Shown here in pieces: positions 1,713 to 41,177 of a stretch of 45,170 bases of DNA (position 1 is its first letter; every line of letters begins with the position of its first letter). The position numbers and the translations under genes are program-made. Below the pieces are notes generated by a model. The model was not told where the DNA came from and did no database searches. It saw only the letters and a list, made by a program, of their open reading frames with translations. The DNA lies in NCBI GenBank assembly GCA_019419725.1, contig DXZL01000001.1, forward strand, positions 1 to 45,170, in the 5' to 3' direction. The stretch is from Veillonella sp. GTDB taxonomy: Bacteria > Bacillota > Negativicutes > Veillonellales > Veillonellaceae.

Positions 1713-2582
1713 TTAATGACCGTTTTTTGTAAATCTACCACCAAATACATCATGTACATCCTGAATCGTAATAAATGCCGATGAATCTACTTCATAAACA
1801 GTATTTTTTAACCTCATAATCTCAAGTCTTGTCACCACAGAATACAAAACATGTTTAGGTTGCTTTAAATAGCCCCCTTCACCATACATGATGGTAACAC
1901 CACGATTTAGGTTCGCATTTAATGCATCTGCAATCTTTTTAGAATTCTCTGCATCGGTAATAATCATGACCCCTTTAGATTCATCAAGGCCTGTAATTGT
2001 AATATCAATCATCTTATAGGCAATGAAGTATGCAATCAAGGAGTACATAGCACTATTCCAACTATATACAAAACCCGCTGCGCCGAGAATAATAAGATTC
2101 ATGGCCATTACGATTTCACCTACAGAGAAGGTTGAACGTTTATCAAATATAATGGCTACGATTTCAGAGCCGTCCAAAGAACCACCGTTACGTATAATGA
2201 GGCCAACCCCAATGCCTAAGATGATACCACCAAAGATAGATCCTAAAAATGGATCCGATGTAATCGGTGTGAAATCATGAGCAAAGGTTGAAAAAATAGC
2301 CATCCATACGATGGAGAACAGTGTAGAAAATGTAAAGTTTTTACCGTTAGCTCTATAGCCAAGATACAAAAAAGGCAAGTTCAAGAGTACAACGAAAATA
2401 CTGAAAGAAATTCCTGAAAGCTCTGCAGCCATCAAGGAAATACCAACTACACCACCATCGATGATGCTATTCGGTACTAAAAATAAATCTAAGCCTATGG
2501 TGTAAATTAAGGCCCCTAAAATCATCATTAAACAACGCATAATAAAGTTTGACCAGTTATGCGTTGAAGTTTCATTTGTCAT
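1713..2582 (-). CDS. YitT family membrane protein (UPF0750/DUF2179-type C-terminus)
   Basis: LFLVPNSIIDGGVVGIS, LNLPFL, GGSLDG and RGVT...G.GGY motifs, multiple TM helices. Start moved to ATG 2582 because of the AAAGGAG RBS. Confidence 0.88.
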   Translation of the reverse strand: MTNETSTHNWSNFIMRCLMMILGALIYTIGLDLFLVPNSIIDGGVVGISLMAAELSGISFSIFVVLLNLPFLYLGYRANGKNFTFSTLFSIVWMAIFSTFAHDFTPITSDPFLGSIFGGIILGIGVGLIIRNGGSLDGSEIVAIIFDKRSTFSVGEIVMAMNLIILGAAGFVYSWNSAMYSLIAYFIAYKMIDITITGLDESKGVMIITDAENSKKIADALNANLNRGVTIMYGEGGYLKQPKHVLYSVVTRLEIMRLKNTVYEVDSSAFITIQDVHDVFGGRFTKNGH

Positions 2583-3099
2583 GCACTTCTCCTTTACCGT
2601 ACAACTGCTCCATAGCATGTAATCTCTTTTCTTCTAACTCACTAGCGTCTATAATGTCCCCTTGCATATCATTAGCAGCTTGACGTAACTGTTTTGTATA
2701 CCGTAAGCCAATAACAAAGGCTGTTAAATCATCTACCGGCTCCGGCGGAAATTGCATAGACGTAGGGATAATCTTACGCCATCCTGTAGGAGGATTATAT
2801 TTCCAATATAATTTACGAGCCTCCTCTGTGCTATGCGATTCATCAATTAAGCTAGTAGTGATTCTGTGATTTCGTCCAATTTGTTGAAGAGATGGATATA
2901 AATATTTATGATTTGTACCATTTCCACATACGATATGAACAATGCCATAATATTCAGTTAATGTACGTTCAATTTCATCATTGAACTGTTTTGTCATAAT
3001 AATTTTACGACACACCATAGTACCAGACGGTGTTACAATTGCTACACCAGTTTTCTCATTGCCTGGATCTACAGCTAAAATGTATGTAGTATCAGTCAT
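2572..3099 (-). CDS. YqgF/RuvX-like RNase H-fold nuclease family protein
   Basis: ILAVDPGNEKTGVAIV first strand, IVCGNGT, IDESHSTEEAR and PVDD motifs. Confidence 0.82.
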   Translation of the reverse strand: MTDTTYILAVDPGNEKTGVAIVTPSGTMVCRKIIMTKQFNDEIERTLTEYYGIVHIVCGNGTNHKYLYPSLQQIGRNHRITTSLIDESHSTEEARKLYWKYNPPTGWRKIIPTSMQFPPEPVDDLTAFVIGLRYTKQLRQAANDMQGDIIDASELEEKRLHAMEQLYGKGEVHDK

Positions 3100-22492: not shown

Positions 22493-23023
22493 TTATTGTG
22501 CACTTTCTTCAGTATTAACTGCTGTAGCTTGACCAGATTGTTGAGCATTTTGTTGCGCATCTTGTTGTTCTTGCGCTTTAGCTGCATTTTCAGCTTCCTT
22601 AATTTGGTCATCAGAAGCTTTACCCATTTTAGCGATCAAGTCGTCAGTTACATCAGAACCGCCACCTACAACAGCACCTTTTTCAATAACTACATCAAGT
22701 TTTTTCTCTTTTACAAGTTCACCAACTTTTTGTTCTTGATATTGACGATATTCTTGAGCTTTTGCATTTGCAAAGGCATTTAATTCTTGATTAGCTTGGT
22801 TAAATACATTTTGTTTAGATGCTTCATCAGCAGCGGCGATTTTAGCATCTAGCTCAGCTTTTTTAGCGTTAATTTCTTTAGTAATTTCAATACCTTTTTC
22901 AGTACTATTTGCTACTTTCACGCTATCAACGTAACCAACATTATTAGAACCACAACCACCTAAAATAGCCATGGAAGCTACTAAAGATGCACCTAATACT
23001 AAAGATTTAATACGTTTATTCAT
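22493..23023 (-). CDS. OmpH/Skp family chaperone, predicted lipoprotein
   Basis: Lipobox LGGC, VGYVD N-terminal strand, LDVVIEKGAVVGGGSDVTDDLI C-terminal OmpH motif, Q/A-rich tail. Confidence 0.82.
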   Translation of the reverse strand: MNKRIKSLVLGASLVASMAILGGCGSNNVGYVDSVKVANSTEKGIEITKEINAKKAELDAKIAAADEASKQNVFNQANQELNAFANAKAQEYRQYQEQKVGELVKEKKLDVVIEKGAVVGGGSDVTDDLIAKMGKASDDQIKEAENAAKAQEQQDAQQNAQQSGQATAVNTEESAQ

Positions 23024-23034
23024 AATATAACTCC

Positions 23035-24006
23035 TTATTGAACTCGATAGGACGCCTTCACTGCATCAGTAATATCAAGCCCCTTAATATTACCACCATC
23101 ATCGATGATGACTAAATCCAAATGTTGTTCCTCTGCAATAATTGCTACGCGCATACGAACATCTTCTAAAATGGCTTCATGAAGTGCACTCACTTCAGCT
23201 TCTTTATCTGAAAGCTTTTTAGCCCAAGAATCATTCCAATCCTGTGCTACAGGTAAGTTATTATTAGCAATGATCGATTGTGCTTGTTGTTGAACCATAG
23301 TATCTCGTTTAGCCGCCAATTCCTTTTGTAAGGATGCAGCATATTGGTTAAGTTCTTCTTGACCTTTTTGTTGCATAGGCGCAAGTTCTGCCTGTACTTT
23401 AGCCTTAATAGAGTCTACATCAAGATTCGATGGTTTTCTCTTAGCTAATAATTCCTTTAATCGCTCCTCTTTCTTAGCCTTCTCTGCCATAGCTGCTTGC
23501 TTTTGTGCATCATCAATATACACACGAGCATCATAAGCATATAAATCTAATTGGAGATTAACGATTTCAAGATCATATTCATTGGAACTAACCTTTAATT
23601 CCGCCAAATATTTTTGAGTAAGTTCGTTTCGTTTTGCATTCAATTGCTGATTCAATTCATTTTCTTTTGTTGCAATACGAGTTTGCAATTCCACCGTAAG
23701 AGCATCTGACAAGGTTGAATCTAATGCAAGAGATTTCAACTGTTCCTCTTGTGTCTCTGACTTGGCATTTAAAGCTTGTTGTTCTAGTTCATATTGACGT
23801 TGCAAAAGATCCAATTCATTTTTAGCTTGTTTATAATCCTCATAAGAAGGATTAAATTCTAATACATCATCAATACGTACAACACCTATTGATACCCCAT
23901 CAGGACTCTGCTGACGATTTGTCACAAATCCATAGGCCCAAACCATAGCACATAATGCAACAACGAGAAATATAGCAAATCCGATATATCGTTTTTTCCC
24001 GTTCAT
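23035..24006 (-). CDS. Elongated OmpH/Skp-like protein with N-terminal TM segment
   Basis: IGVVRID N-terminal strand and LDLVI...GLDITDAV C-terminal motif flanking about 240 helical residues. Confidence 0.75.
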   Translation of the reverse strand: MNGKKRYIGFAIFLVVALCAMVWAYGFVTNRQQSPDGVSIGVVRIDDVLEFNPSYEDYKQAKNELDLLQRQYELEQQALNAKSETQEEQLKSLALDSTLSDALTVELQTRIATKENELNQQLNAKRNELTQKYLAELKVSSNEYDLEIVNLQLDLYAYDARVYIDDAQKQAAMAEKAKKEERLKELLAKRKPSNLDVDSIKAKVQAELAPMQQKGQEELNQYAASLQKELAAKRDTMVQQQAQSIIANNNLPVAQDWNDSWAKKLSDKEAEVSALHEAILEDVRMRVAIIAEEQHLDLVIIDDGGNIKGLDITDAVKASYRVQ

Positions 24007-26884: not shown

Positions 26885-26980
26885 AAATACTGGGAATGAG
26901 TACTATATTAAACAAATTTTATGAAATTAATATGACTAGAATGTGCATACCCATGGGATTTGCACACTCTAGCCATAAAC

Positions 26981-29900
26981 TTAGAAGCTTCTTGTCCAAC
27001 GACCACCTAAATAATTGTTTCCTTGCGATGTACGCCATGCAGTAAACTTGAGGTTTCGTTTTACAGAATACTCAACACCATATTTATTTTGTTTATTATT
27101 GATACCTTGAGAATAAGTAAGCATTACCTTTGGCACAATATACTTGCCAATTTCAATATTATAATTACCTGCCGTTTCCCTATTAGTTGGTTCATCAGGG
27201 TCAATGGAACCTGTCGTAATATTAATCCGATCTAAACCTAATGTATTTTGTAATGCATCTTGCACATAGCCAAAGGCAAACATTTGTAAGCCTGCTGTAG
27301 CAACAGCATTCACATCATCATTTGTCAATGTACTGCTATTTGAATCTGCCCCACGGCCAAAGGTCAACATAGAAATAATTTGTTTTCTAGACAAACTAGG
27401 ATTAGACGATAAAGTCAAATCCATGTGATCTACCGTGCCTTTTACGCCGAGCAGAATATTATAATTACTTACATTTGTTTCAGCCTCTAATTGTAAGTTT
27501 GGCAAATAGGAGCCACCCACGAAGTGTGCATTCCCCTTCGTAATATTAAATACATGACTTAAGTATTTGAACGTACCAGATTTAACATCGAACTGGCCAC
27601 TAGCAGTTGGGTTTTGTAATGTGCCACCGAAATGAACATCACCACCGATAAACATGTTATATAGAGTTCGATCATATAAGCGTACGCCCTTGCCAGCATG
27701 AATATTAACATCTACGCCCATGTTGGTGCTACTTTCACTAGACTGCAAGGAAAGAGGAATCTTAAATTGGATGTTTTCTAGGTCCAAATTCCCTATCAAG
27801 GTAGGTAATCCATCACGTTCCGCAATGTAAAGTTCACCATTTAATGGACCTCTCACATATTCACTACGAACATCGAGTCCATCAAGTTGAACGGCAGCCT
27901 TATAGTTGGTAAGCTCATGACCAGACCAATTTACCTTAGCAGCTAAACCAGCACTACCTTTCCCCATATTGATACGAGATTGGAAATCCCCTTGTTGTCC
28001 AGAGAAGATTAAGTCTCCGTCAATGCCTGTAATTTCATTATCTACATTGGCCAATTTCATAGTACCATTACGTACAGATACTGTGCCGTATGCCTCAGGT
28101 TGGTCTATAGTCCCCGTAAGCCTAATTGCACCCTTTAACGGCCCCGTTGCATCTTTAACCCTAGTAGTAACAAGAGGAATAACAGCCATATCAGCTTCGT
28201 TAAAGTCAATTGTTACATCCATAGATTTAGCATCACTAGCTTCTAAATAACCAGATGTATAAAGAGCCGCCAATGGAATTTTGCCATAAATACTAAGTTT
28301 ATAGCCACCCTTAGCACCTTGAATACGCTGAATTTGAATGACATGATCTTGCATTGTAGCTAACGCAAAGCCTTCATCAATGCCAATTCCATTGAACGAA
28401 CCGGACTCTACTGCTCCGGACAATTCAACCTTAGGATTTTTCGTTTCGCCAGTAACATTCACAACACCAGTTACCCAGCCTGTTGCCTGAATATCCTTAC
28501 CTATGAGTGGCAAGAACGGCACTATATCGACATCCTTCAAGGCTACTTGTAAATCAGTTTGCCCATCCAGATCCAAAGTACCACCCATTGCAATAAGTCC
28601 TTCATCAACAGGTAGTTTTAAAGTGGTAATTTTAAACTTTCGATTAGCTAGACTAGCATCAATCGTTGCATCACCAACAACCTTATCATCAATAGTAACG
28701 TCGCTAATTTTACCATTCACAGTAACACTTGGATTATCCTTTGATCCTCCAAGCTCAACAGAGCCATTTAACTGTCCATCAAGATGTTCATTAGCTCGAT
28801 CTAGTAATGCCAATAAATTCTTTACACTACCATTGGTAACATCTAAAACACCAAATAATTGTTTGCTATCGTCAAGCTTCATGCCACCTTTAGCAACATA
28901 ACGCCCACCATTTGATTCAGCAAAAGAGAAATCTTGTACATTTACAACGGATTTATCTGCATAAACATGACCATGAATATCCGTCAATAACTGTCCATTA
29001 ATGGATAAAGCATCAGATAAAATATAGCCATTGAACTGAGGGTTATCCATAGAGCCTGTTATAGTACCGCGGCCTGCTAATAAACCATCTACCTTATAAT
29101 CGGTATTGATGAGCAATCTACCCATATCGATTTTCTTACCTTCAAAATCAATATTAATAGCTTCTTTCGACACAGTGCCGCCACCAGTAATAGTCGCACC
29201 ATAACCTTCGATATCAAAACGATATAATTCTAATCTTTCATTTTTATAGTTATACTTTGCAAAAGCATTAGTTATAAGCTTTCCATATGCAGACCCATCC
29301 CATAAATGAGCTCGGCCTTCTACAATAGGATTGGCTACAGTCCCAGTTATATGGTTATCAGTTTCAAACCATCCTGTAATAGGAATATCGGTTACAGGAC
29401 GAATTAGATTTTCAATACGTACAGCACGAGCTTTAGCATTTAAATCTAGGGCGTCAGTATTGATATTATACCAACCGGTAATATCATAGCCACCACTACC
29501 GTCACCAATATGACCATTGGTAATTGTTAGAACATGATTGTCTAAAGTAATATCACTATGAATATCATTAAAATGAGCACCCTTATAGAGAACCTCTTGT
29601 CCCCATACAGTACCAGTCACATTAGGATTATCTAAGGCGCCTTTTACATTAATAGATGTGCTAACAGTACCAGCAACATCTTCACCTATGATTGAACTAA
29701 GTGATGTTAACGGTAACGCATTACCAGAAATTGTGGCATCCACTTGACCATTTTGAATAGAACCATATCCACTAAAGGATCCAGTTCCCATATTTCCAAC
29801 CATAGTTATATTGGTAAGATTGTCACTATGGGTTAGATCCGCTTTTACAGAATCCAACACTACACCACGGACCCCAATCTGATGGCCTTGAATAGCACCA

Positions 29901-31267
29901 ACCAGATCGGTAAGTTGATTATTCTTTCCCAAAACATGGACTTCTCCATCAACTGTCCCTGTAATAGGCATCGTCAAATCTTGTGTGAAAGTATCTAACG
30001 ATAAAGCATGAACATTAGCAATGGCGTCAAAATCACCTGTATCTACGACGTATTGACCTTTAACTTTAGCATTACCAGCGCCAATAGATAATTGAGCATC
30101 ATCGATGCGAACCAATCCATTATCGTATACTACATTTCCTTGTACGCGGTCCACACGGTACCCTTTATAAGAAATACCATCACTGCCTATAGTTGCATCT
30201 ACCCGCGGCGCTACAGTAGTGCCTCCAATATGAGCACGACCACCGACAATACCAGTAACCCCCACATCGGTAATGGCTTCTAGATTCACCTTATCCGCTA
30301 CAACATTAAGGTTGAGATATTCTTCGGCTTTCCCCAATGTAATAAGACCATTGAGCTTCGCTGCTTGATCATTGATACGCCAAGAGCTATGGCTAATAAC
30401 AATTTGGTCATGATTGAGCATAATACGACCTTCACCATCAGTGATGGTATACATCGTATTGCCCCGCTTATAAGTGCCTGTTAAACCTTTAAAGCCAACA
30501 TTGCCACTCATAATATATTGTCCATCTTCACTCTTAACATTGAGATGTAAATCTTGTAATTTCCCCTTCGTTACAACAAGATCTTCGCGCAGTGGAACAA
30601 AGCTCATAATACCAGCAGTATCAATTTCATCGGCTTGTACAAAGACATCAAAATTAGACACATCGTCCATATCTATTTTGCCATTTACAAGAACAGATGA
30701 ACCATCTACATCGGCAGTAAATGCCCCTTTGGACATACCACTCATATTAAGAGCAACGGTGCCATCAAGTTTTTCAATATCGCGTTTAACGCCATCTTTA
30801 GTGCGCAGCGCTACATGACCATTATTAATGGTAATATCACCATCAAAACTACCCGATTTATTCGGATCAGATGGTTTAACTAACTTTTCTATACTCCAAG
30901 ATCCATCGTTCAATTGCCATATGTGAAGATCAGGTGCATCCACGGTAACATTGGATATAGCTGTCGCCCCTGATGTGTTACCCCCAATTATACTTGGTAA
31001 TGCAGATAGTTTAACCCCAACAGCTACATCTTGTGCCGTCCCTACTAAGTGACCATCCCGATCTTTAATCACCACATCTGATAAAACTACATCACCATTC
31101 CAATTGATACGAAGAGAATCATAGTCCACAGATCCGTTTATGGTATTATTTACTTGTTCTTTAACCATAGGTTCTACATAGGTCTTAGCTATAGGGTTTA
31201 TACTAGCACCAACTGCAGATAATCCTAAAATTGCAGCCCCTATGAGACACCACTTTTTACGGGTCAT
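26981..31267 (-). CDS. tamB: TamB / AsmA-like (DUF490) trans-periplasmic protein
   Basis: 1428 aa, N-terminal TM, recurring G..(x)P.V.G beta-taco pattern, C-terminal LSSNPSLSRKQIISMLTFG and terminal beta strands ending in F; upstream of bamA. Confidence 0.92.
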   Translation of the reverse strand: MTRKKWCLIGAAILGLSAVGASINPIAKTYVEPMVKEQVNNTINGSVDYDSLRINWNGDVVLSDVVIKDRDGHLVGTAQDVAVGVKLSALPSIIGGNTSGATAISNVTVDAPDLHIWQLNDGSWSIEKLVKPSDPNKSGSFDGDITINNGHVALRTKDGVKRDIEKLDGTVALNMSGMSKGAFTADVDGSSVLVNGKIDMDDVSNFDVFVQADEIDTAGIMSFVPLREDLVVTKGKLQDLHLNVKSEDGQYIMSGNVGFKGLTGTYKRGNTMYTITDGEGRIMLNHDQIVISHSSWRINDQAAKLNGLITLGKAEEYLNLNVVADKVNLEAITDVGVTGIVGGRAHIGGTTVAPRVDATIGSDGISYKGYRVDRVQGNVVYDNGLVRIDDAQLSIGAGNAKVKGQYVVDTGDFDAIANVHALSLDTFTQDLTMPITGTVDGEVHVLGKNNQLTDLVGAIQGHQIGVRGVVLDSVKADLTHSDNLTNITMVGNMGTGSFSGYGSIQNGQVDATISGNALPLTSLSSIIGEDVAGTVSTSINVKGALDNPNVTGTVWGQEVLYKGAHFNDIHSDITLDNHVLTITNGHIGDGSGGYDITGWYNINTDALDLNAKARAVRIENLIRPVTDIPITGWFETDNHITGTVANPIVEGRAHLWDGSAYGKLITNAFAKYNYKNERLELYRFDIEGYGATITGGGTVSKEAINIDFEGKKIDMGRLLINTDYKVDGLLAGRGTITGSMDNPQFNGYILSDALSINGQLLTDIHGHVYADKSVVNVQDFSFAESNGGRYVAKGGMKLDDSKQLFGVLDVTNGSVKNLLALLDRANEHLDGQLNGSVELGGSKDNPSVTVNGKISDVTIDDKVVGDATIDASLANRKFKITTLKLPVDEGLIAMGGTLDLDGQTDLQVALKDVDIVPFLPLIGKDIQATGWVTGVVNVTGETKNPKVELSGAVESGSFNGIGIDEGFALATMQDHVIQIQRIQGAKGGYKLSIYGKIPLAALYTSGYLEASDAKSMDVTIDFNEADMAVIPLVTTRVKDATGPLKGAIRLTGTIDQPEAYGTVSVRNGTMKLANVDNEITGIDGDLIFSGQQGDFQSRINMGKGSAGLAAKVNWSGHELTNYKAAVQLDGLDVRSEYVRGPLNGELYIAERDGLPTLIGNLDLENIQFKIPLSLQSSESSTNMGVDVNIHAGKGVRLYDRTLYNMFIGGDVHFGGTLQNPTASGQFDVKSGTFKYLSHVFNITKGNAHFVGGSYLPNLQLEAETNVSNYNILLGVKGTVDHMDLTLSSNPSLSRKQIISMLTFGRGADSNSSTLTNDDVNAVATAGLQMFAFGYVQDALQNTLGLDRINITTGSIDPDEPTNRETAGNYNIEIGKYIVPKVMLTYSQGINNKQNKYGVEYSVKRNLKFTAWRTSQGNNYLGGRWTRSF

Positions 31268-31480
31268 AATGATCTCCCATACACATTATGAATAAAATAA
31301 ATATATATACTAATCTTACCACACACACAGTAATAACTATAGTATTTTAAGGGTAAATTTTATAAAACTAATATATTTTTTTACTAATCATTTTCTACAA
31401 TAACTACAGATAAAATTATTTAAACATTACCATAACATAAAAATGAAAATATACAATGAATCTACGCTCTATAAATCTAT

Positions 31481-31512
31481 AAAAAAAAAAGACGACCGAA
31501 GTCGTCTTTTTT
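31481..31512 (-). terminator. Terminator after tolC
   Basis: Minus strand GACGAC-TTCG-GTCGTC (cUUCGg tetraloop) followed by T10. Confidence 0.92.
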
Positions 31513-31521
31513 AGTATCCAA

Positions 31522-32982
31522 TTATTGATTACCACCAAGTTGTGCTAGTTGTTCAGCTGCACCACTGTTTGCAATAATTCCTGCGCCTTGTCCAACTGGA
31601 GTATTCAATGGAACACCTGTCAATTGTTCAAGAGCTGCAATGCTAATATTGTAATTATAAAGAGCTTGTACATAGTTATTACGAGCATCTGTTAATTTAG
31701 TTTCCGCATCGAGTACATCAAGGTTTGTACCAACACCAGCACGATAGCGAAGTGTAGCAATACGGAAGCTTTCTTGACCTTGAGCGACTGCAGTTTGAGT
31801 GCTTTGGATTGTTTGCTCTGCAGAACGCAAGTTCAAGTATGCTTTTTGTACGGCTAATAATACAGCATCAACAGTAGCTAAATTAGCTTCTTTCGCTTGT
31901 TCAAGTTGTGCATTGGCTTTTTTAATAGCATTTTGTGTAGCACCGCCGTCCCATAAACTCCAGGATGCAGTAGCACCTACACTCCAAGATTTTGTACTTG
32001 TTCCAAAGTAACCATCTGGATCAGCATAGCCACGACCTGCTTTTACTGCTACAGTTGGTAAATAACCAGATTTAGCAGATTTTACAGCTTCTTCTGCAGA
32101 TTTTACATCAAGGGCAGATTTTACAAGAGCAGAACGATGAAGCAAAGCATATGCTTTAGCTTGTTCCAATGTAATATTATAAGGTTTATATTGTAAATCA
32201 TGTTCTGCCGTATTAATAGCTGTTTGTACAGGATATGCAATGACTTGATTTAAACTTGCTTCTGCTAAATTTGCAGCATTTTGAGCTTTAACAAGGCTCG
32301 TTTCAGAGTCAGCAAGATTTGTTTTAGCAGCCAACACATCAGAACTAGCTACCAAGCCAACATTATATTGAGCTTGCACATTTGTTACATGACCTTGGTA
32401 ATCTTTAACAGCTTGTTGAGCTACATCAACAAGATTACGGTTCATGATCAATGTGTAATAGCCACTAATAGCATCGTATTTTGCTTGTTGCAATGCTTCT
32501 TCATAGCTAGCGCCAGTACCTTCACGGGTATAACGTGCAGAATCAATACTTGCATCAAGTTGAGGATTAAATACAGGAGCACTAATGGAGAAGTTATGGC
32601 TACCGGATTTACCACGTCCAGTATCACCGCCTGTTTTTTGAGCAGACCACCCATAGCTAACACTAGGGTTCTTAGCTGCTGCTACTTGACTAACTGCAGA
32701 TTTAGCAGCTTCATAACCCCATTTAGTTTGTTTTGCAGTACGGTTATTCGCCAATGCCAAATCTATAGTACGAGACTCATCGAGGTCCAATTTGCTCTCA
32801 TATGTTTTGCTATCTTGAACAGATTTTTCAGCTAATTGCTTTTGTGTTAATTGAATAGCTTCTTTTTGATATTTGCTTAATTGGTCTCCATTATTAACGG
32901 AAGTTGTAACTACATCAGCAGCCATTGCACCTGTAGTAGCTAAGGAGAGCATTACACCCAAGGATAAAACCTTTTTATTCAT
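31522..32982 (-). CDS. tolC: TolC family outer membrane channel
   Basis: Signal peptide and two OEP repeats (AQYNVGLVASSDVLAA; LRYRAGVGTNLDVLDA; YLPTV...WSLWDGG). Start moved to ATG 32982 (GGAGGT RBS). Confidence 0.93.
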   Translation of the reverse strand: MNKKVLSLGVMLSLATTGAMAADVVTTSVNNGDQLSKYQKEAIQLTQKQLAEKSVQDSKTYESKLDLDESRTIDLALANNRTAKQTKWGYEAAKSAVSQVAAAKNPSVSYGWSAQKTGGDTGRGKSGSHNFSISAPVFNPQLDASIDSARYTREGTGASYEEALQQAKYDAISGYYTLIMNRNLVDVAQQAVKDYQGHVTNVQAQYNVGLVASSDVLAAKTNLADSETSLVKAQNAANLAEASLNQVIAYPVQTAINTAEHDLQYKPYNITLEQAKAYALLHRSALVKSALDVKSAEEAVKSAKSGYLPTVAVKAGRGYADPDGYFGTSTKSWSVGATASWSLWDGGATQNAIKKANAQLEQAKEANLATVDAVLLAVQKAYLNLRSAEQTIQSTQTAVAQGQESFRIATLRYRAGVGTNLDVLDAETKLTDARNNYVQALYNYNISIAALEQLTGVPLNTPVGQGAGIIANSGAAEQLAQLGGNQ

Positions 32983-33024
32983 AATATGTACCTCCATACT
33001 CACCTAAAGTGAATGTATTAGTCT

Positions 33025-34284
33025 TTAAAATACTTGTTTGATACCAAAGTAGGTACCGCCATTCGTGGAACCGAACGGTCTGGTCATTTGAATAACCCCA
33101 TAAGTATCTTTATGTAAACGTATATCACTACGAATACGATATTTACGATGATTAAGATCATACATAGCAGCAGACAAGGATACAGGACCACGTAAATTAT
33201 AATCTACGCCCACACCCAATTCACTTTCAAAAATACCACCACGTACTAACCATTTCGGACTAACAAATTTTCCTGCATTTAAATCGAATTTTGTATCATC
33301 CCCAATATTGGATAGTCCAATTTCTGCCATACCTTTATCATTAAAAGCACGAACACGACCATTGATACGGAATTCATCATCTGTTGTGTTATATAGTAAA
33401 TCTACAGATGGCTCAACTTTAGTTGATGACTTTTTTTCAACATTATTCCCGTCTGCAACATTACCATTTACATCAGTTTGGTACGCTTTACCACCCATCA
33501 ATTTATTGATACGAGCAGAAATTTGTGCCGTATTATGTAATGTTTCCTTAATATTTTCTTGTGCTTTAGGATCTGTTACTGTAGATTCCATAGAACGAGC
33601 CATATTATCTACACGATCCGTAGTTTGTTTTAAATTAGTCAAAATAGCGCGCATATCATTGCCTGCATTACCATCTGCATTAAATTGTTGAGCAGCTTGA
33701 TTTAGCTGTGCAGTTACATCAGCCATATTTTGTGTAATCGCTACAGCATTATCAGCCATCGTTGCAGTAGATTGCAGGGAGTGCTTAAGTGCATTTTGCG
33801 TTGCTGGATCACCAATAATATTATTGATAGATTGCAACATTTTTTCGGTGCCATCCATTAGTTTTTGAGCGCTTTGCATCGCTTTATCCATAGCGTCTGC
33901 ACCTTCGCCCTTAACAGAGTCACCATCTTGTAAATATACTGTAGAATGACCAGGTGAAATTTGGATAAATTTATCGCCTAAGAAACCATCTGACCCTAAA
34001 GTAAATATAGAATCACTTGGGATTTGTGTTTTTTCATCAAGCTTCATTTTTACTACCACACCATGCGGTGTAATCTCTATATCAGAGACATTACCAATGG
34101 CCACACCTGAGTATTTAACTTGATTGCCATTTTTTAGACCATTAACTTGAGCAAAATCACCAGTAATTGTCATTTGCGGCTTAGCCCATATATCAATGCG
34201 GCCTACAAACAGTATGCCCGCAATAAATAATGCTATACCTATTATCGTGAAAGCCCCTACCTTGGCCTCCGTCGTCCACTTCAT
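33025..34284 (-). CDS. mlaD: MlaD/MCE protein with helical stalk and C-terminal beta-barrel
   Basis: EAKVGAF TM, MCE domain (VNGLKNGNQVKYSGVAIGNV, GFLGDKFIQISPG), about 135 helical residues, amphipathic strands ending YFGIKQVF. Confidence 0.93.
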   Translation of the reverse strand: MKWTTEAKVGAFTIIGIALFIAGILFVGRIDIWAKPQMTITGDFAQVNGLKNGNQVKYSGVAIGNVSDIEITPHGVVVKMKLDEKTQIPSDSIFTLGSDGFLGDKFIQISPGHSTVYLQDGDSVKGEGADAMDKAMQSAQKLMDGTEKMLQSINNIIGDPATQNALKHSLQSTATMADNAVAITQNMADVTAQLNQAAQQFNADGNAGNDMRAILTNLKQTTDRVDNMARSMESTVTDPKAQENIKETLHNTAQISARINKLMGGKAYQTDVNGNVADGNNVEKKSSTKVEPSVDLLYNTTDDEFRINGRVRAFNDKGMAEIGLSNIGDDTKFDLNAGKFVSPKWLVRGGIFESELGVGVDYNLRGPVSLSAAMYDLNHRKYRIRSDIRLHKDTYGVIQMTRPFGSTNGGTYFGIKQVF

Positions 34285-35042
34285 TATACCTCTCCCATCA
34301 CAGATACGTTAATTGGTTCTGCTTCACCATGAATAAACTGTTGTACCTTTTTATTTGTAGAATTCTTAAAGTCTATTGTATCAGAAATTTCCACAAATTT
34401 CCCCTTATCAAGTAAAGCTATGCGGTCTGCTACATAAAATGCAGATTGCATATCATGCGTTACAACGATAGAAGTACAACCGAGCCGTTGCTGCATTCCC
34501 TTAATCAACATACTAATCGTACCTGATGTAATAGGATCTAACCCGGATGAAGGTTCATCATAGAGAATTAAACTCGGATCTAACGCTATGGCACGAGCTA
34601 AGCTAACACGCTTCTTCATGCCTCCAGATAATTCGTTAGGCATATAGGATTCATACCCTTTTAAACCGACCCAATCGAGTCGCTCTGCTACAATGCGTTT
34701 TATTTCATCATCTCCTAAGTCCGTATGCTGACGTAAGCCAAAGGCTACATTTTCACCTACCGACATAGAGTCAAATAATGCAGAGTATTGGAATACCATC
34801 CCCATTTTTCTTCGTACTGTATTAAATTCATCTTCAGATAATGTTGTAATATCTGTGCCATCTACTATAATCTGTCCCGATGTAGGACGCTGCAAGCCAA
34901 TCAATAAGCGAAGTAGTGTACTTTTACCACTACCACTACCACCTAAAATGACTAACGTCTCCCCATCATCGATGGTGAGATTAATAGAGTCTAAAATCAC
35001 ACGCGACTCATAGGCAACTACAACATTGCGTAGTTCTATCAT
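34284..35042 (-). CDS. mlaF: MlaF ABC ATPase
   Basis: GGSGSGKS, FQYSALFDSM, LSGGMKKRVSLARA, YDEPSSGLDPI, VTHD. Confidence 0.95.
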   Translation of the reverse strand: MIELRNVVVAYESRVILDSINLTIDDGETLVILGGSGSGKSTLLRLLIGLQRPTSGQIIVDGTDITTLSEDEFNTVRRKMGMVFQYSALFDSMSVGENVAFGLRQHTDLGDDEIKRIVAERLDWVGLKGYESYMPNELSGGMKKRVSLARAIALDPSLILYDEPSSGLDPITSGTISMLIKGMQQRLGCTSIVVTHDMQSAFYVADRIALLDKGKFVEISDTIDFKNSTNKKVQQFIHGEAEPINVSVMGEV

Positions 35043-35062
35043 AAATCCCTCTAATGTATCTA

Positions 35063-35824
35063 CTAATATAACAAGGTAGATAAAAAGTAATTTAATACAA
35101 ATACTAAAATGATACTAGTTACTACAGAACTAGTTGTGGAGAAACCAACCGCTTCAGCGCCCATTTTAGTTTCCATCCCCTTGTAAGCACCTACCAATGC
35201 GATGACAGCACCAAATACGCTAGATTTCACAAGACCTAGTGTAAAGTCTGAAATGGTAGAAAACATTTGAATAGAATCTAAATAAGTACTTGGCGCCAGA
35301 CCTTTGATAGTAGTAGCTACAAAGTAACCACCTGCAATACCAATGACTACACCATAAAATGCCAAAATAGGCACCATAATCATACATGCTACTACACGAG
35401 GCACCACGAGATAACCAACAGGATCGACAGCCATAACACGTAGCGCATCAATTTGTTCAGTTACCTTCATTGTACCAATTTCAGCCGTGATAGCGGCGCC
35501 AACACGGCCGGCCAGTACAACCCCTACTAAAATAGGTCCTAACTCACGCCCCATAGCAACAGCCATAAGACCACCCACAGTGCTTTGAGCTCCATATGTA
35601 ATTAATACATCTGTAATCTGTAAAGTCATAACCGCCCCTGCAAATAGTAGCGTTAAGCTAATAATCGGCAATGAATCTACACCTAGGTGAGCCATCTGCT
35701 GGAATACATGCCACAGATTAATCATTTTCAGTTGTTTTATTGTTTGCCACACTAATAATGTAGCACTACCCATCTGTGATAGGCCGTGTATTACAACACG
35801 ACCTATCGATTCAAGCCAATTCAA
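35063..35824 (-). CDS. mlaE: MlaE ABC permease
   Basis: GVDSLPI, RELGP, AGRVGAAITAEIGTMKVTEQIDAL, GAEAVGFSTTSSVV; TTG start. Confidence 0.96.
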   Translation of the reverse strand: MNWLESIGRVVIHGLSQMGSATLLVWQTIKQLKMINLWHVFQQMAHLGVDSLPIISLTLLFAGAVMTLQITDVLITYGAQSTVGGLMAVAMGRELGPILVGVVLAGRVGAAITAEIGTMKVTEQIDALRVMAVDPVGYLVVPRVVACMIMVPILAFYGVVIGIAGGYFVATTIKGLAPSTYLDSIQMFSTISDFTLGLVKSSVFGAVIALVGAYKGMETKMGAEAVGFSTTSSVVTSIILVFVLNYFLSTLLY

Positions 35825-35855
35825 CAGTCTAGCCCTTTCCCCTTACATTTTCAGC

Positions 35856-37838
35856 TTATTCAGCTGCATTAGTATCATTTACTTTAGATTCATCCTTTTT
35901 ATCAGGTGTTTTTGTGTCTTGTTTATCAGACTTTTTCACATCTTTTTTACTGGATTTATCCTTTTTTGATTGGTCTTCCAACTCTAATTTATGTTCCATC
36001 TTGATTTGATTTTTAACTTCTTTTACGCGTTTAGCTAGTGCTTTATCACGATCAGCTGGCTTCATAACATGAATTGTAAATTGACCATCACCTTGAACGA
36101 TGTACTCTGTATCAATAGCAGTCTTTTCGATTTGATTGTCATCATCCTTATTGGAACCCAAATCTTCTTGACCAATTTTTTTCTTTACATCCCCTGGCAT
36201 AGGTTTTGATTCTACATCTTTAAGTTTCGCTTTTTTAACAGATTTGGAACCATCTTCATCAACAAGGCTAATGCCATCTTCTAAAAACTCTACAACGATT
36301 TGATTATTCGTATCAGTCTTTTGAATTTCATCATAAAGCTCATCAAAATCTTTATGAACTTTTAATCGACGTAAGATTTCATCAGTTAAATTGTATTTTT
36401 GTTTTTCTAATACATAAGGTAATGGGATTTCACCGCCCCCACGCACCTCTAAGGTATACTGACCAACAGCTTGATCTTCAGGAACTTTAAAGAAGATTTG
36501 TTTAACAACCTTCTCCCCGCGGAATGGCTCCAACGTTACATCTACAACGATTGTATCCCCAGGAGAAACAATGGTAGAAGATGCAGACGCATCAATAAGC
36601 TTTGCAGTTTTCTTATCTTGTGTCACCTCAGTTTCTACAGAGATATCAGAGATTTCATAATTAATGAAGCGGTTATTCATAAGAACATCGATAACATTAT
36701 AGAACTCATCAACAGCCTTCTCTGAGATAGAGTCAGAACTATAGAACATATTAGTTCGTGTTAACGGTTTATGTTCTTTACCTCTTGGAGTAATAGTATA
36801 AGAAATTGTAGCTGTACCAGCGCCACTACGATCTAATGTTTTATTCAACATATTATATAGAGATGTAGCCGCTAAAGTCGGTGTCATTTCACTATCTTCA
36901 ATGACCTTAACAGAGCTAGTTTTATCACGTCCCATATCAAGGTCTTTCAAATGGAATCGCATAGGGATCCCTGGAGAAATCACACCAGAAACACCTGCAA
37001 TACCAGCACCTCTATCTTCAGTTACAGAGCCAACTTCCTTGCCCATAGAGCCCAATTTGAAAGCAGCATCATAACTTTTAACTACTGTAAAGATGCTTGC
37101 ATTATGCATGAAGTAGTTTGAGGAGCCATGTTTTAAGAATGGATGACCAAAGGCAACAATCTTTTCCCCATCTACATAGGTAACAGTACCAATGGCACCA
37201 AGTTTTAGATCACCATCAACTAATAATGCGGCTACAGAGCCACCAGCCTCTAAAGGTTTTGCAGTTTCATCACCACTAGCACTAGCCGTATCATATGTTT
37301 CATATTTATATTGTGGCAACTTGGATTTGAAGTAATCCATGGATGCTGCATCAAAGCCATAAGCCATAAGTGGCGTGCCAAGAGGAATCAATTGTTTATC
37401 ATCCCATGGTCTAGATAGGTTCTTCTCATATGGAATATTCCATAATTTCACCATATCTTCAATAGGGGTAATCATCCCGATCGTACCGTCTGCAAACCCC
37501 CAACCATAGGCAACAGCACCAACGAGCTTGCCATTTATATATACAGGACTACCACTCATGCCATGAGCAATGCCTCCAGTTTTTTCCATAACAGGACCAG
37601 AGAACTTTGCCAAAATAAGATGACCAGATGGCCCCTTATCCTTCATGACACCCAGTACCTTTACATCAAAGGTTGAAATGGTATCTCCTACAATTACAGT
37701 TTTTGCAATACCTTCCATACCTGTAGTTACATCATTGACAGGCATGAAATCAACAGCCTGTGCAGCTGTAAGTGAAGTACAGAAGAAAAGCGCCAGTATC
37801 GCTTTTCTATACCGACGCCAAGAATGAGAAAACTTCAT
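35856..37838 (-). CDS. Secreted SpoIVB-like peptidase S55 domain protein
   Basis: Signal peptide ending AQA, TGGIAHGMSGSPVYINGKLVGAV, AIGTVTY...AFGHP; K/D-rich tail. Confidence 0.87.
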   Translation of the reverse strand: MKFSHSWRRYRKAILALFFCTSLTAAQAVDFMPVNDVTTGMEGIAKTVIVGDTISTFDVKVLGVMKDKGPSGHLILAKFSGPVMEKTGGIAHGMSGSPVYINGKLVGAVAYGWGFADGTIGMITPIEDMVKLWNIPYEKNLSRPWDDKQLIPLGTPLMAYGFDAASMDYFKSKLPQYKYETYDTASASGDETAKPLEAGGSVAALLVDGDLKLGAIGTVTYVDGEKIVAFGHPFLKHGSSNYFMHNASIFTVVKSYDAAFKLGSMGKEVGSVTEDRGAGIAGVSGVISPGIPMRFHLKDLDMGRDKTSSVKVIEDSEMTPTLAATSLYNMLNKTLDRSGAGTATISYTITPRGKEHKPLTRTNMFYSSDSISEKAVDEFYNVIDVLMNNRFINYEISDISVETEVTQDKKTAKLIDASASSTIVSPGDTIVVDVTLEPFRGEKVVKQIFFKVPEDQAVGQYTLEVRGGGEIPLPYVLEKQKYNLTDEILRRLKVHKDFDELYDEIQKTDTNNQIVVEFLEDGISLVDEDGSKSVKKAKLKDVESKPMPGDVKKKIGQEDLGSNKDDDNQIEKTAIDTEYIVQGDGQFTIHVMKPADRDKALAKRVKEVKNQIKMEHKLELEDQSKKDKSSKKDVKKSDKQDTKTPDKKDESKVNDTNAAE

Positions 37839-37850
37839 TCCTTCTCTCCT

Positions 37851-38135
37851 TTATTTACTTTCTACTGTGACAACGATTTGATCACGAGAAACGTCTGAAC
37901 CCACTGTAACATTAACCGCCGTTACAGTACCAGTTACAGTAGATTTAGCAGCAGCCATAGGACCAGCCAATGTCTCTACAGTCACCAATGTTTGGCCTTC
38001 TGTTACAGAAGTACCAACAGAAACTGTAGAAGCAACTTTACCTGTTAATACACTTTGGTATGATACAGGGGCCGCCATTACAGAGCTAACACTTAAAATG
38101 CCTAAAGCAGCTAAGGCCAACACTACTCTTTTCAT
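37851..38135 (-). CDS. Small secreted biotinyl/lipoyl-like (barrel-sandwich hybrid) protein
   Basis: Signal peptide ending VMA; two half-motifs GKV...VSVGTSVTEGQTLVTVE and GTVTAVNVTVGSDVSRDQIVVTVE; strong AAGGAGG RBS. Confidence 0.8.
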   Translation of the reverse strand: MKRVVLALAALGILSVSSVMAAPVSYQSVLTGKVASTVSVGTSVTEGQTLVTVETLAGPMAAAKSTVTGTVTAVNVTVGSDVSRDQIVVTVESK

Positions 38136-38173
38136 AACGATCCCTCCTTTTACAAAATTAGTTATGTATTTAT

Positions 38174-38202
38174 AGTATACTAAATTATTACTAATATTTC
38201 AA
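38174..38202 (-). promoter_or_regulatory. SigA-type promoter heading the lipoyl-like/S55/mlaEFD/tolC operon
   Basis: Minus strand TTGAAA-17 nt-TATACT, about 40 nt upstream of ATG 38135. Confidence 0.68.
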
Positions 38203-38223
38203 ACAAAATTGTATGCAACGAAT

Positions 38224-39567
38224 TCATTTTATAATTACAATATCCTCATAGGTCGTAGGATTTGAAGTCGCTTTATGAACGTATGTATCATTGACTACTA
38301 AATCAACACTACCTTGATTCGATAATTCAGCACCATCCACGACGCCTAGTTTGGATAATAGTTGAGCCCCTTCTTGTTGTGTAACCCCTACAGATTGAAG
38401 CCCAGCTTTATCAACAGTGAGCACCACCAAATTATGATCTTTAGTAGTTCCTATAAAACTACGAGCTTTATTATGGGTCCCATCAGCACCAACATAGTTA
38501 CCATTTTTCAAAACCATAGTACCTGCTTGTAAAGCTGCTCCACCAGTGGTATTCACTTGTGCCAACTCCGGTCTATTTTGAATCGTAATCGGTGTGCCCA
38601 CCTTTAATTTACGTAACGCATCCCTAGATTCTCCATGACCAGATAATACGTATTGGTTTTCTCCAATTTTAGAATTCCCTTTTTGACCACTAACCACCTT
38701 GCCATTAGCTACAGTCACTTCGTATCCAAAGTCATTAGTCTTTGTAGATGCCCCATACGCTGATGTATATAGAGTCAAAGCATTTTCTTTACGACTTGTA
38801 TTAACAGAGGTAATCAGGAATGTATCCTTCTGTGTTTTAGCCTGTAGTAAAGGTCTTTTTTCTTCAATAAAATATCCACGATTTGGTGTATATCGCAAGG
38901 TGCCACGATTAGAAATACGCTCTAAGTCAATCGTTCCATCACTAGCTACTGAATAAGGACGATCAAAACTACTACCTTTTACCTTTGCGCCAATTATGGC
39001 AGTATGCGATTGAACTACAGATGATAAGAGTTTACCTTCCGAAACATGAGCGACCAACATAGGTGAATCATTGTCCACAGATAATGCAAAGGCTTGGATT
39101 TTGCCTTCTGCTACAGTGTTATTAATCTTGCTATACGTAACAGATTTATTTACATCCTTTGTTGTTTGTTGAGCATAGCTAGAAAATAAATCCACAACAA
39201 TACGCGATGGCTTCTCCAATGTAAATTCATGATGTTGTACATCCTTGTTAGCCGTCAATGTTACTTGCAAAGATCCATTAACAGGTTGTAAGCCAATGCC
39301 TTTTAAAACACCTGTTTTTGTATTATTTTGCGCTATAGGACCCGTCAATCCATTTGTAGTACCACCAAGGTTAAGTGTAAGGGCATGTGTGGACTCATTA
39401 TAAGACTTAGTCCAAGATACAGGCATTTCAGATACATCCAATACGATTCGACTTGTACCTTCGTGATTAGAAACACGTACGCCGGTTAAATTTCCAGCTT
39501 CCGCATAAGGTATTGTGCTGCCTAGAAAGCCTAACACAGCAAAAGTCATATATAAATATCGTTTCAT
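38224..39567 (-). CDS. Secreted AMIN-domain + phosphodiester glycosidase (NAGPA)-like protein
   Basis: Signal peptide ending AEA; AMIN pattern (VRV...TSRIVLD...LEKPSRIVVDL); C-terminal ARSFIG...LTVD...GVT..E.AQLL..LG..DG pattern of the NAGPA family. Confidence 0.72.
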   Translation of the reverse strand: MKRYLYMTFAVLGFLGSTIPYAEAGNLTGVRVSNHEGTSRIVLDVSEMPVSWTKSYNESTHALTLNLGGTTNGLTGPIAQNNTKTGVLKGIGLQPVNGSLQVTLTANKDVQHHEFTLEKPSRIVVDLFSSYAQQTTKDVNKSVTYSKINNTVAEGKIQAFALSVDNDSPMLVAHVSEGKLLSSVVQSHTAIIGAKVKGSSFDRPYSVASDGTIDLERISNRGTLRYTPNRGYFIEEKRPLLQAKTQKDTFLITSVNTSRKENALTLYTSAYGASTKTNDFGYEVTVANGKVVSGQKGNSKIGENQYVLSGHGESRDALRKLKVGTPITIQNRPELAQVNTTGGAALQAGTMVLKNGNYVGADGTHNKARSFIGTTKDHNLVVLTVDKAGLQSVGVTQQEGAQLLSKLGVVDGAELSNQGSVDLVVNDTYVHKATSNPTTYEDIVIIK

Positions 39568-39646
39568 TTACAATTCCTCTATAGCGACAACTCATATTAA
39601 TAGATTTATATTCATACATCAATTTTATACAATATACTTTTACTAT

Positions 39647-39675
39647 AGTATACATCATATAGATGAAAATTACAA
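39647..39675 (-). promoter_or_regulatory. SigA-type promoter of the AMIN-domain gene
   Basis: Minus strand TTGTAA-17 nt-TATACT. Confidence 0.62.
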
Positions 39676-39686
39676 AAAGGATGCAC

Positions 39687-39751
39687 AAAAAAAGAAGTTA
39701 CTATCTACGGTCATTCCATTTTTCAATGGCCTATCTATAAATAGTAACTTC
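39687..39751 (-). terminator. Terminator after mreB
   Basis: GAAGTTACTAT / ATAGTAACTTC 11-bp arms with an inner partial stem, then T7 on the minus strand. Confidence 0.7.
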
Positions 39752-39782: not shown

Positions 39783-41177
39783 TTATTGTAATTCATCCAA
39801 TGTATCGCGCAATTGTGACATTTCATCAAGAGCTTTTGCAACCCCTTTGATAACAGCATATCGCGGAGACTCTACCAAATAAGATGCAATACCAACAGAA
39901 CGTGTAATAACACGATCTAAACCATCGATGAGAGCACCGCCACCTGTCAAAATGATACCATGATCATTAATGGCTGCTACAAGTTCTGGAGGTGTTTTTT
40001 CTAAAATCGATTTAATGCCTTCTAGAATATTCATCACTTGCGCCTCTAAGGCACGTTGAATTTCTAAGGAATTAACAGCAACCATCTTAGGTAGTCCAGA
40101 GCTAGCATCACGCCCTCTAACCTCTATAGTTCGTTCTTTAGCACGTCGATCTACGGTACCAACAGAAATCTTTATCTTTTCTGCTGTTAAAGGTCCAATA
40201 ACAAGTCGCTTCTTACGACGTATATAGCGAATAATAGATTCATTGAAGGAATCTCCCCCAATGCGAAGGGATTCACTCACAACAACGCCAGTATCACAAA
40301 GAACGGCAATATCAGTAGTACCGCCACCTACATCGACAACCATAGCTCCAACTTGGTCAGCATCATTGAGACCTGTACCCATAGCAGCTGCTAATGGTTC
40401 CTCTATAAGAACAGTCTTTTTAGCGCCTGTTCTAAGTAAAGCCTCTAAAATAGCACGTTTTTCAACAGGCGTAATTCCAGATGGCACACATACAATAATA
40501 CGCGTTTTCATCAATCTAGAAGCAGGCACAACGGAACGAATAAAGTATTTTAACATAAATTCGGTCATATCGTAATCTGCGATAACACCCGCTTGAACAG
40601 GACGAATAACAGATATGCCTTTAGGTGTACGCCCAACCATAGAACGTGCAGCTTCACCTAACGCGAGAATATCTCCGGTTTTATCATCACGCGCAATATA
40701 GGCAGGCTCATCTAAGACTAGCCCTTTCCCTTTAGCAAAGATAAGAATATTGGCAGTTCCCAAATCTATACCTAAGTCAAAATTCAATGAACGATTCAAT
40801 CGTCCCATTAAATCGCCTACTTGTTCAGGACGAACTAATCGCTTTAATGTCATAGCAGGTGTAGTTTTCGCTATGGCAACAGTCTCACGATTACGACGCT
40901 CAACACGGCGCATTTTGGTGACTTTAACCATTGCTTCCCGCATATTGGAAGCCAAATGGCTAGCTTGCTTAGCTACGCCCTCTGAAAGCTTCGTAGACTT
41001 GCGTTTCGTTCTTCGTAATGGTTTGCGATTAGAACTAGTTTTAGCATTTTCAACCTTTGCAGCACCTAAGTTTTGTTGCTCGTTGTATAAAGCCGGCCCT
41101 TTTGAGCGCCGGCTTCGTTTCTTTTTATTCTGTTTTGGCTCTGTACTTTTATTCGTCAACCCGAACAATATCAGCAC
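39783..41177 (-). CDS. mreB: MreB/Mbl family actin-like protein (start uncertain: 41177, 41159 or 40808)
   Basis: [53 protein letters not shown]. Confidence 0.93.

Follow-up and report, generated by a model that had tools for sequence, protein, structure and literature searches.

This analysis concerns a window of 45,170 nucleotides (nt) from Veillonella sp. (positions 1 to 45,170 of contig DXZL01000001.1 of assembly GCA_019419725.1). Within it lie six minus-strand open reading frames (ORFs) encoding, in order of transcription, a small lipoyl-fold protein termed g1, a protein resembling the S55 peptidases (S55), MlaE, MlaF, MlaD and TolC. In this Veillonella-group genome, the six genes form one transcription unit, which comprises two modules of different standing. 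The genes mlaE-mlaF-mlaD-tolC are the minimal Mla system known from the literature on diderm Firmicutes, which transports phospholipids across the envelope, together with its constant TolC-family neighbour. With moderate confidence, we read the other two, g1 and S55, as a periplasmic protease module linked to the biogenesis of the outer membrane (OM), which is co-transcribed with the known Mla-TolC module and probably does not contribute Mla subunits. This reading builds on the anatomy and synteny of the region, on partial homology of S55 with conserved Ser, His and Asp residues and on export signals, and it draws on published work for the function of Mla, the abundance of S55 in OM fractions and its co-purification with BamA. 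The genes, the signals that bound them and the two flanking genes are as follows.

37851-38135, minus strand: g1, 94 amino acids, PF00364 Biotin_lipoyl at 27.5 bits (cut-off 22.1), corresponding to Vpar_0520
35856-37838, minus strand: S55-like protein, 660 amino acids, Peptidase_S55 at 44.2 bits over profile positions 109-209 of 210 only, corresponding to Vpar_0521
35063-35824, minus strand: MlaE permease, 253 amino acids, PF02405 at 257 bits
34284-35042, minus strand: MlaF ABC ATPase, 252 amino acids, ABC_tran at 124 bits, with a conserved place between MlaE and MlaD
33025-34284, minus strand: long MlaD, 419 amino acids, PF02470 at 69 bits, MCE domain at residues 39-112 and a C-terminal extension of about 300 residues
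31522-33003, minus strand: TolC/OEP, 493 amino acids from a GTG start, PF02321 at 207 bits in two stretches, corresponding to Vpar_0525
38174-38202, minus strand: sigma-70-type promoter-like site upstream of g1, TTGAAA-17-TATACT, 10 of 12 matches
31485-31512, minus strand: intrinsic terminator after tolC, with a 12-bp stem, a UUCG loop and a T-run
26981-31267, minus strand: TamB (downstream context), 1428 amino acids, PF04357 at 162 bits, separated from tolC by a 254-nt spacer
38224-39567, minus strand: secreted protein with AMIN and NAGPA (DUF2233) domains by Pfam (context directly upstream), corresponding to Vpar_0519

In the ORF listing of the window the six genes are tightly packed, with gaps from g1 to tolC of 12, 31 and 20 nt, a 1-nt overlap and 21 nt. 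The last of these becomes 42 nt when tolC is read from the ATG at 32982, a likelier start than the GTG at 33003. An initial annotation of the sequence had proposed six genes with these spacings (including the 42 nt), a clean promoter at 38174-38202, a strong terminator at 31481-31512 and no internal terminator, and each of these elements is borne out. The terminator hairpin (31512-31485) folds at -14.5 kcal/mol (z = -4.09; none of 200 shuffles folds equally well) and is invariant across four closely related strains. The sole hairpin called within the operon, at 37243-37228, is weak, with 6 pairs and a poor T-tail. Promoter-like sites are no commoner in the window (35) than in shuffled sequences (31.6, standard deviation 6.7), so that the hexamer match by itself is no evidence, and it is conservation that carries the promoter call: across the aligned intergenic regions of four Veillonella genomes (S55 proteins 74-100% identical), neither the -35 TTGAAA nor the -10 core GTATA changes in any of the 4, with variable flanks.

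Transcription of the region was followed in RNA-seq contigs of a strain about 94% identical to the window, taken from four studies (4 runs) and mapped on 26900-39700. In all four runs the contigs are unbroken from 31535 to at least 39560, that is, across all six genes and into the AMIN/NAGPA gene. In three of the four a break falls within the tolC-tamB spacer, at or beside the terminator, with contigs stopping at 31185, 31266 or 31490 and the following ones beginning at 31535, 31507 or 31532. In the remaining run a single contig spans everything, including this spacer. The contigs fit a unit that ends after tolC, and the co-transcription anticipated in the initial annotation has to this extent withstood the RNA-seq check; as the data are contigs, a single transcript cannot be proved from them. 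None of the four runs shows a break at the proposed g1 promoter, and read-through from the AMIN/NAGPA gene is therefore possible. Only the V. parvula group has the 254-nt tolC-tamB spacer (31268-31484), with its terminator and, ahead of tamB, a conserved AT-rich stretch. In a neighbouring genus (loci L032 and L105) the tolC-tamB distance is only about 25-35 nt, and the end of the operon thus varies between genera.

The second of the two modules is already well described. In V. parvula, mlaEFD is "directly followed by" tolC and tamB, an arrangement described as conserved in all Negativicutes (Grasekamp 2023, PMC10665443). MlaEFD acts there in retrograde phospholipid traffic with an MlaD that spans the envelope, loss of tamB suppresses the mlaD phenotype, and no MlaA or MlaC is known in this lineage (PMC10665443). 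Genes three to six of the unit are the same operon in the same order, with a long MlaD of 419 amino acids followed by tolC and then tamB, and the window proteins are 96-99% identical to those of L031, a complete genome of the same genus. The MlaFED core is present, as MlaE, the ABC ATPase and the MCE-domain protein MlaD are encoded together. MlaD reaches 91.5 bits against TIGR04430, below the cut-off of 135. Judged by its length and the position of its MCE domain, the protein would be the barrel-type MlaD of the literature, which spans the envelope and carries a C-terminal OM beta-barrel (PMC10665443). TolC has two OEP repeats (PF02321) and reaches 139 bits against TIGR01844, again below the cut-off (225). 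Domain scans of the six genes and those flanking them yielded no adaptor of the membrane-fusion/HlyD type and no RND or MacB-type pump, and the sole ABC transporter adjoining tolC is MlaEF.

The "undescribed system" of the initial annotation is therefore not undescribed as a whole, since mlaEFD-tolC-tamB has been published (PMC10665443) and S55 has been flagged as Vpar_0521 (Poppleton 2017, PMC5491611). Of its three exported proteins with no assigned role, all of which carry Sec-type signal peptides at their N-termini by sequence, g1 and S55 indeed have no characterised function, and TolC is the published neighbour of mlaEFD, in a cluster that offers it neither adaptor nor pump. In the available part of the earlier work the operon is drawn from mlaE and the two genes upstream are not mentioned (PMC10665443; its Supplementary Fig. 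1 may show them), whereas the promoter and the RNA contigs analysed here assign g1 and S55 to that unit as well. New to the present analysis are the position of g1 directly before S55, the conserved order of the larger cluster, the break between S55 and mlaE in a few genomes, and the arrangements of S55 with MlaEFD or with TamB-BamA outside the Negativicutes.

Of 121 genomes searched in the class, 117 encode an S55 protein, and among the 99 of good quality 98 do. Its neighbourhood was sampled in 18-kb regions from 31 of these 117 genomes, chosen to cover 27 of 29 families. Directly upstream of S55, with gaps of a few bases, g1 is found in 29 of the 31 loci; MlaE-F-D follows S55 in 27 (in one of them after a 3.3-kb insert), and among these 27 TolC is present in 25, between MlaD and TamB, and TamB likewise in 25. 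An AMIN/NAGPA gene lies upstream of g1/S55 in 25 of the 31. The order AMIN/NAGPA-g1-S55-MlaEFD-TolC-TamB-BamA is conserved across the Negativicutes, and the six-gene order with it. Such regularity would suit the proposal, first made in the initial annotation, that g1, S55 and TolC are accessory parts of the trans-envelope MlaEFD bridge, involved for instance in the maturation or gating of MlaD or in exit at the OM. The lack of any known MlaA or MlaC in this lineage (PMC10665443) makes unassigned Mla partners plausible. Against this proposal, the cluster is broken exactly between S55 and mlaE in four of the 31 loci (G092, G068, G034 and G076), where mlaE and tamB are still adjacent and lie 0.35-0.94 Mb from S55 or on a different contig. 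A break at this point indicates two modules.

The arrangements outside the class bear on the same question. A profile of the 31 S55 proteins matches 10,095 cluster representatives at E<=1e-3 and 3,553 at E<=1e-30, and 80 named loci were inspected from genome contigs. The adjacency of S55 and MlaEFD is seen in many Negativicutes among them and recurs in four loci outside the class, namely in Riflebacteria (L078), in L080, in GBS-1 (L085) and in Synergistaceae (L127), which favours a link to Mla. In L078, L085 and L127, however, TolC is absent after MlaD, and TolC stands beside MlaD only in the Negativicutes. Eight further loci, including Armatimonadota L095 and Limnochordia L119, have S55 followed by TamB(-BamA) and no Mla genes, and in L093 and L107 S55 is followed by BamA. 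Two loci, L083 (7881-11680) and L095 (7944-11665), carry tandem S55 genes, with a g1-like ORF before them and TamB and BamA after them; one comes from an Armatimonadota metagenome-assembled genome (MAG), the other from a "Candidatus Fervidifonticultor" MAG.

The genes on the other side of the pair raise a further alternative, namely that g1-S55 works with the upstream MurA, MreB-like and AMIN/NAGPA proteins in remodelling the cell wall or its tethers to the OM, and that the Mla genes are merely read through. In two of the split genomes (G092 and G068) g1-S55 remains beside the MreB-like gene; the order MurA-MreB-S55 occurs in Atribacterota (L062, L063) and MreB-AMIN/NAGPA-S55 in L073, L084 and L119; and both the frequent AMIN/NAGPA neighbour within the class and the RNA contigs, which cross the AMIN/NAGPA-g1 junction in 4/4 runs, agree with such a partnership. 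We nevertheless regard it as unlikely, given the conserved Veillonella promoter between g1 and the upstream gene, the fact that TamB/BamA or Mla follow S55 as constantly as these genes precede it, and the absence of a known biochemical link to peptidoglycan. The AMIN/NAGPA gene itself, found upstream also in L073, L078, L080, L084 and L119, encodes a phosphodiester glycosidase-like protein with no match in NCBIfam.

Published proteomic data add information on location and association. Vpar_0521, the counterpart of S55, was singled out as a protein without an assigned role that diderm Firmicutes conserve and that occurs in OM fractions (Poppleton 2017, PMC5491611). According to the supplement, Vpar_0519 and Vpar_0521 were detected in whole-cell, OM and surface-exposed fractions, and the intensity-based absolute quantification (iBAQ) value was 5.5e7 for Vpar_0521 vs 7.3e7 for MlaD (PMC5491611). 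This similar abundance of S55 and MlaD in OM preparations would again suit a shared Mla function. In Acetonema longum, just two proteins came down with BamA when it was co-immunoprecipitated after cross-linking with an antiserum against it: a porin and F7NM31, which has an S55 domain (PMC13018214). Table S1 of that study lists MlaD as F7NM28/ALO_RS14965 and MlaE as F7NM30/ALO_RS14975, and F7NM31, of 600 amino acids, adjoins mlaE by accession and locus-tag order; it is thus the orthologue of the window S55. Searches of the literature on peptidase S55 and the outer membrane, or on Vpar_0521, found only PMC10665443, PMC5491611 and PMC13018214, and the single physical association in print joins the S55 orthologue to BamA, not to MlaD. 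Because g1-S55 is split from Mla in 4/31 loci and stands directly before TamB-BamA elsewhere, and because the S55 orthologue was co-immunoprecipitated with BamA, we do not count the pair among the Mla subunits; the idea of accessory parts of an Mla bridge is weakened accordingly and appears to us improbable. The other possibility raised by the initial annotation, a linked quality-control or proteolysis module, fits the evidence best.

S55 is an exported, protease-like protein. A signal peptide is followed at residues 28-136 by a Ser-bearing barrel of the chymotrypsin/SpoIVB type with the motif GMSGSP (S95), in a protein of about 70 kDa. After the barrel come a beta-rich region (D210, H232 within AFGHPF, K261 and D275-R276), further beta/alpha domains up to about residue 520, and at the C-terminus a long helix (594-636) with a Lys-rich tail. 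The Pfam Peptidase_S55 match has an E-value of 3e-11, and no PDZ domain was found in a Pfam scan (E<=0.01). The AlphaFold2 (AF2) model is confident (mean predicted local distance difference test, pLDDT, 80.9; predicted template modelling score, pTM, 0.75). In a fold search, residues 28-136 match chains of HtrA/Deg best (Z 9.6-10.4) and align with the SpoIVB structure 9lnf at Z 10.0, with a root-mean-square deviation of 2.2 over 104 residues. The full model has no PDB match in Foldseek at E<=1e-3, the best being again SpoIVB 9lnf at 1.9e-3, and an ESM Atlas look-up returned S55-named Bacillota clusters only. S95, D210, H232, K261 and D275-R276 are invariant in 31/31 Negativicutes S55 sequences, and the equivalent columns are invariant in 51/51 distant homologues. 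This invariance of Ser, His, Asp and further residues would argue for a working active site.

The C-terminal end is less uniform. Residues 594-660, comprising the long helix and the Lys-rich tail, are confined to those aligned sequences that are Veillonella-like. In addition, the strain of the RNA-seq runs carries a 24-nt in-frame insertion at 35916, within the Lys-rich tail (4/4 runs), and the tail is therefore variable among strains.

The partner protein g1 is very small. Its Sec signal peptide ends at VMA/AP and leaves a mature protein of about 70 residues (about 7 kDa), formed by a domain of the lipoyl/barrel-sandwich-hybrid fold. Its profile matches the lipoyl domains of E2 and of oxoglutarate dehydrogenase at E 1e-7 to 1e-4, and it shares the Biotin_lipoyl fold with lipoyl and biotinyl carriers. 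It differs from them in being exported and stand-alone, in having no enzyme context in the cytoplasm and in lacking a conserved modifiable Lys: in alignment A2 the glycines are invariant, and there is no invariant or near-invariant Lys at the hairpin tip. Periplasmic adaptor (membrane-fusion) proteins contain a similar barrel-sandwich-hybrid domain, and g1 has none of their other domains. An exported protein of some 70 residues that lacks both the Lys and the remaining adaptor domains can thus be classed neither with cofactor carriers nor with efflux adaptors. Among 265 relatives of similar length, the organism-named records belong to Negativicutes or unclassified Firmicutes/Bacillota, and the database names are "biotin/lipoyl-binding protein" and, once, "AcrA (membrane-fusion protein)".

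A complex prediction of S55 (residues 28-520, A1) with mature g1 (A2) returned "no answer" (scores 0.00 and 0.02, mark 0.32), which is uninformative either way. In the 150 best representatives of the S55 family, no fusion to a g1 domain was found. Separately, one ENA contig encodes a protein (P0151) of 759 amino acids that matches g1 over its whole length with 98% identity and contains PF05580 as well; its length equals g1, stop codon, 12-nt spacer and S55 read in frame (window 37839-37853). This single record may be a natural fusion by stop-codon read-through or a sequencing error.

Taken as a model, the two Sec-exported proteins g1 and S55 would form a periplasmic, OM-associated protease unit that serves OM biogenesis or quality control around BamA and TamB and might, for instance, process envelope proteins or remove them. 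In such a unit g1 might act as adaptor, chaperone or inhibitor of S55. Co-expression with Mla-TolC would then stem from the common ancient supercluster of OM-biogenesis genes, and not from a place as a structural subunit of the Mla bridge. Here we infer the protease activity, its substrate and the role of g1.

Several points weigh against the protease-module reading and in part favour a plainer alternative, in which S55 either carries out general housekeeping proteolysis in the periplasm or is non-catalytic, its position reflects the co-orientation of a large envelope cluster, and g1 is unrelated. Neither g1 nor S55 has an experimental tie to any phenotype. The His-bearing region of S55 (140-340) has no significant match to four SpoIVB sequences in hhalign (probability 0.6%), and its fold matches are weak (Z<=5.3, predominantly trypsin-like chains, below the chance level of 7-8). 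Only half a protease domain is thus demonstrably homologous, and a complete catalytic site would go beyond that evidence. The co-immunoprecipitation with BamA depends on 3 peptides, and the authors of that study themselves state that they found no accessory partner (PMC13018214). In the V. parvula proteome, Vpar_0520 (g1) is predicted to be SEC-exported, as is Vpar_0521, and was not detected by mass spectrometry (PMC5491611). Moreover, g1 is missing before S55 in L050, L059 and several Phascolarctobacterium loci, and the S55-MlaEFD adjacency, seen again in at least three further lineages, could just as well reflect a true link to Mla.

The wider family and the local gene density add to these reservations. 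In 17 loci from Planctomycetota, Acidobacteriota, Gemmatimonadota, Latescibacterota, Zixibacteria and other phyla (L097, L100, L108, L110, L113, L120, L122-L125, L132-L134, L136-L138 and L140), S55 is followed by a Reg_prop beta-propeller protein of about 700 amino acids (with Big), and some proteins of about 1,400 amino acids (P0121, P0122, P0142) are S55-propeller fusions. S55-propeller is a second conserved and uncharacterised pairing. No Mla or TamB gene was found within about 4 kb of S55 in these phyla, and the S55 family is accordingly not tied to TamB/BamA everywhere. In the window itself the 40-odd genes lie on one strand in one supercluster, where adjacency is cheap and a shared order of co-oriented genes counts for less than it would elsewhere; both sets of loci (31 and 80) are, in addition, samples. 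Against a mere neighbourhood speak the g1-S55 pair, which is kept with gaps of a few bases in nearly all sampled Negativicutes and recurs in Armatimonadota-type loci, the position of S55 relative to TamB, BamA and Mla, which is kept across phyla, and the Ser, His and Asp residues, which are invariant in more than 80 sequences. On balance, we consider this plainer alternative decidedly improbable.

The relation of S55 to the sporulation protease SpoIVB deserves separate treatment. The compartment to which each protein is exported lies between two membranes, and their Ser barrels with GMSGSP are homologous: in hhalign, S55 matches four true SpoIVB sequences with a probability of 98.7% (E 1.6e-16, 40% identity over about 100 residues), in residues 32-134 only, and S95 aligns with the Ser378 motif of SpoIVB. 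Beyond this barrel they differ, as S55 has no PDZ domain, begins its Ser barrel directly after the signal peptide (residue 28) and contains about 400 extra residues with no counterpart in SpoIVB. Against the SpoIVB equivalog of NCBIfam S55 scores 43 bits vs a cut-off of 305. The organism is described as non-sporulating in the proteome study (PMC5491611), and a true SpoIVB is present besides the S55-like gene in four of five Negativicutes genomes searched. Since sporulating Negativicutes hold both genes, the two are distinct paralogues, and the S55-like protein is not SpoIVB.

In SpoIVB the barrel with His236 precedes that with Ser378 (PMC12502668). In S55 the AF2 model of the His-bearing region alone reaches a pLDDT of 84, and H232 in AFGHPF resembles the GALGH of SpoIVB at the level of motifs (GxGTxTY...AFGH vs ...GTLSFY...GALGH), within a stretch that is not significant in HMMER. 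A circular permutation, with the His half placed after the Ser half, is not established by the hhalign and fold scores given above together with a likeness of motifs; it is kept as a lead only, and a permuted chymotrypsin-type fold in S55 is possible. A broader evolutionary scenario is tentative at best: g1-S55 might be an ancestral BamA/TamB-associated protease module of diderm Terrabacteria in a quality-control role like that of BepA or DegP in Proteobacteria, from which SpoIVB would derive as a paralogue that kept the Ser barrel, rearranged the His half, gained a PDZ domain and was taken into service between the two membranes of the forespore, a space of equivalent topology.

DegP/HtrA and BepA are the periplasmic OM quality-control proteases of Proteobacteria and are named here as functional analogues. 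With DegP/HtrA, S55 shares export and a chymotrypsin-type Ser barrel (the HtrA/Deg chains being the top fold matches), and an orthologue of S55 has a reported association with BamA. In contrast to DegP/HtrA and BepA, S55 has no PDZ domain, another domain order and extra domains, so the resemblance lies in the proposed role and not in family membership.

The surrounding window is an OM-biogenesis cluster of diderm Firmicutes, a type of cluster reportedly described by Antunes et al. in 2016. Its order runs from MurA-type, MreB-like and AMIN/NAGPA genes through g1, S55, MlaEFD and TolC to TamB, BamA, Skp, Lpx/Kds, MsbA-type, Lpt and DUF3084 genes, and the OM families represented are LpxA/B/C/D/I/K, KdtA, KdsA/B/C/D-type, MsbA-type, LptA/B/C/FG, Skp, BamA, DUF3084 and TamB. 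Some members of the cluster are themselves unusual. The MreB-like protein (39783-41177, minus strand; 464 amino acids) has a basic N-terminal extension of about 130 residues before MreB_Mbl (134-456), and the MreB-like gene at that position in other genera aligns only from about residue 100-130 onward. Between Skp and LpxD, two minus-strand ORFs (22493-23023 and 23035-24006; 176 and 323 amino acids) match no Pfam family at E<=1e-5, and the same holds for the ORF at 2572-3099 (175 amino acids), so that the OM cluster has three more members with no assignment.

To our knowledge, diderm Firmicutes have no BamB-E, TamA, Lol pathway, MlaA or MlaC, which raises the question of how these bacteria build and police an OM with such a short list of known components. 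S55 is near-universal in the Negativicutes, abundant in OM preparations and encoded between cell-wall genes and Mla/TamB/BamA genes across several phyla, and yet it is unstudied. Genetic work is feasible in V. parvula SKV38, for which mutants of mlaD (SDS/EDTA sensitivity, roughly 17-fold hypervesiculation) and of tamB with clear phenotypes already exist, so that the roles of S55, g1 and the orphan TolC are directly testable. The analysis corrects the expectation that g1, S55 and TolC are Mla subunits, and it places S55 in a very large family that is mostly unrelated to sporulation.

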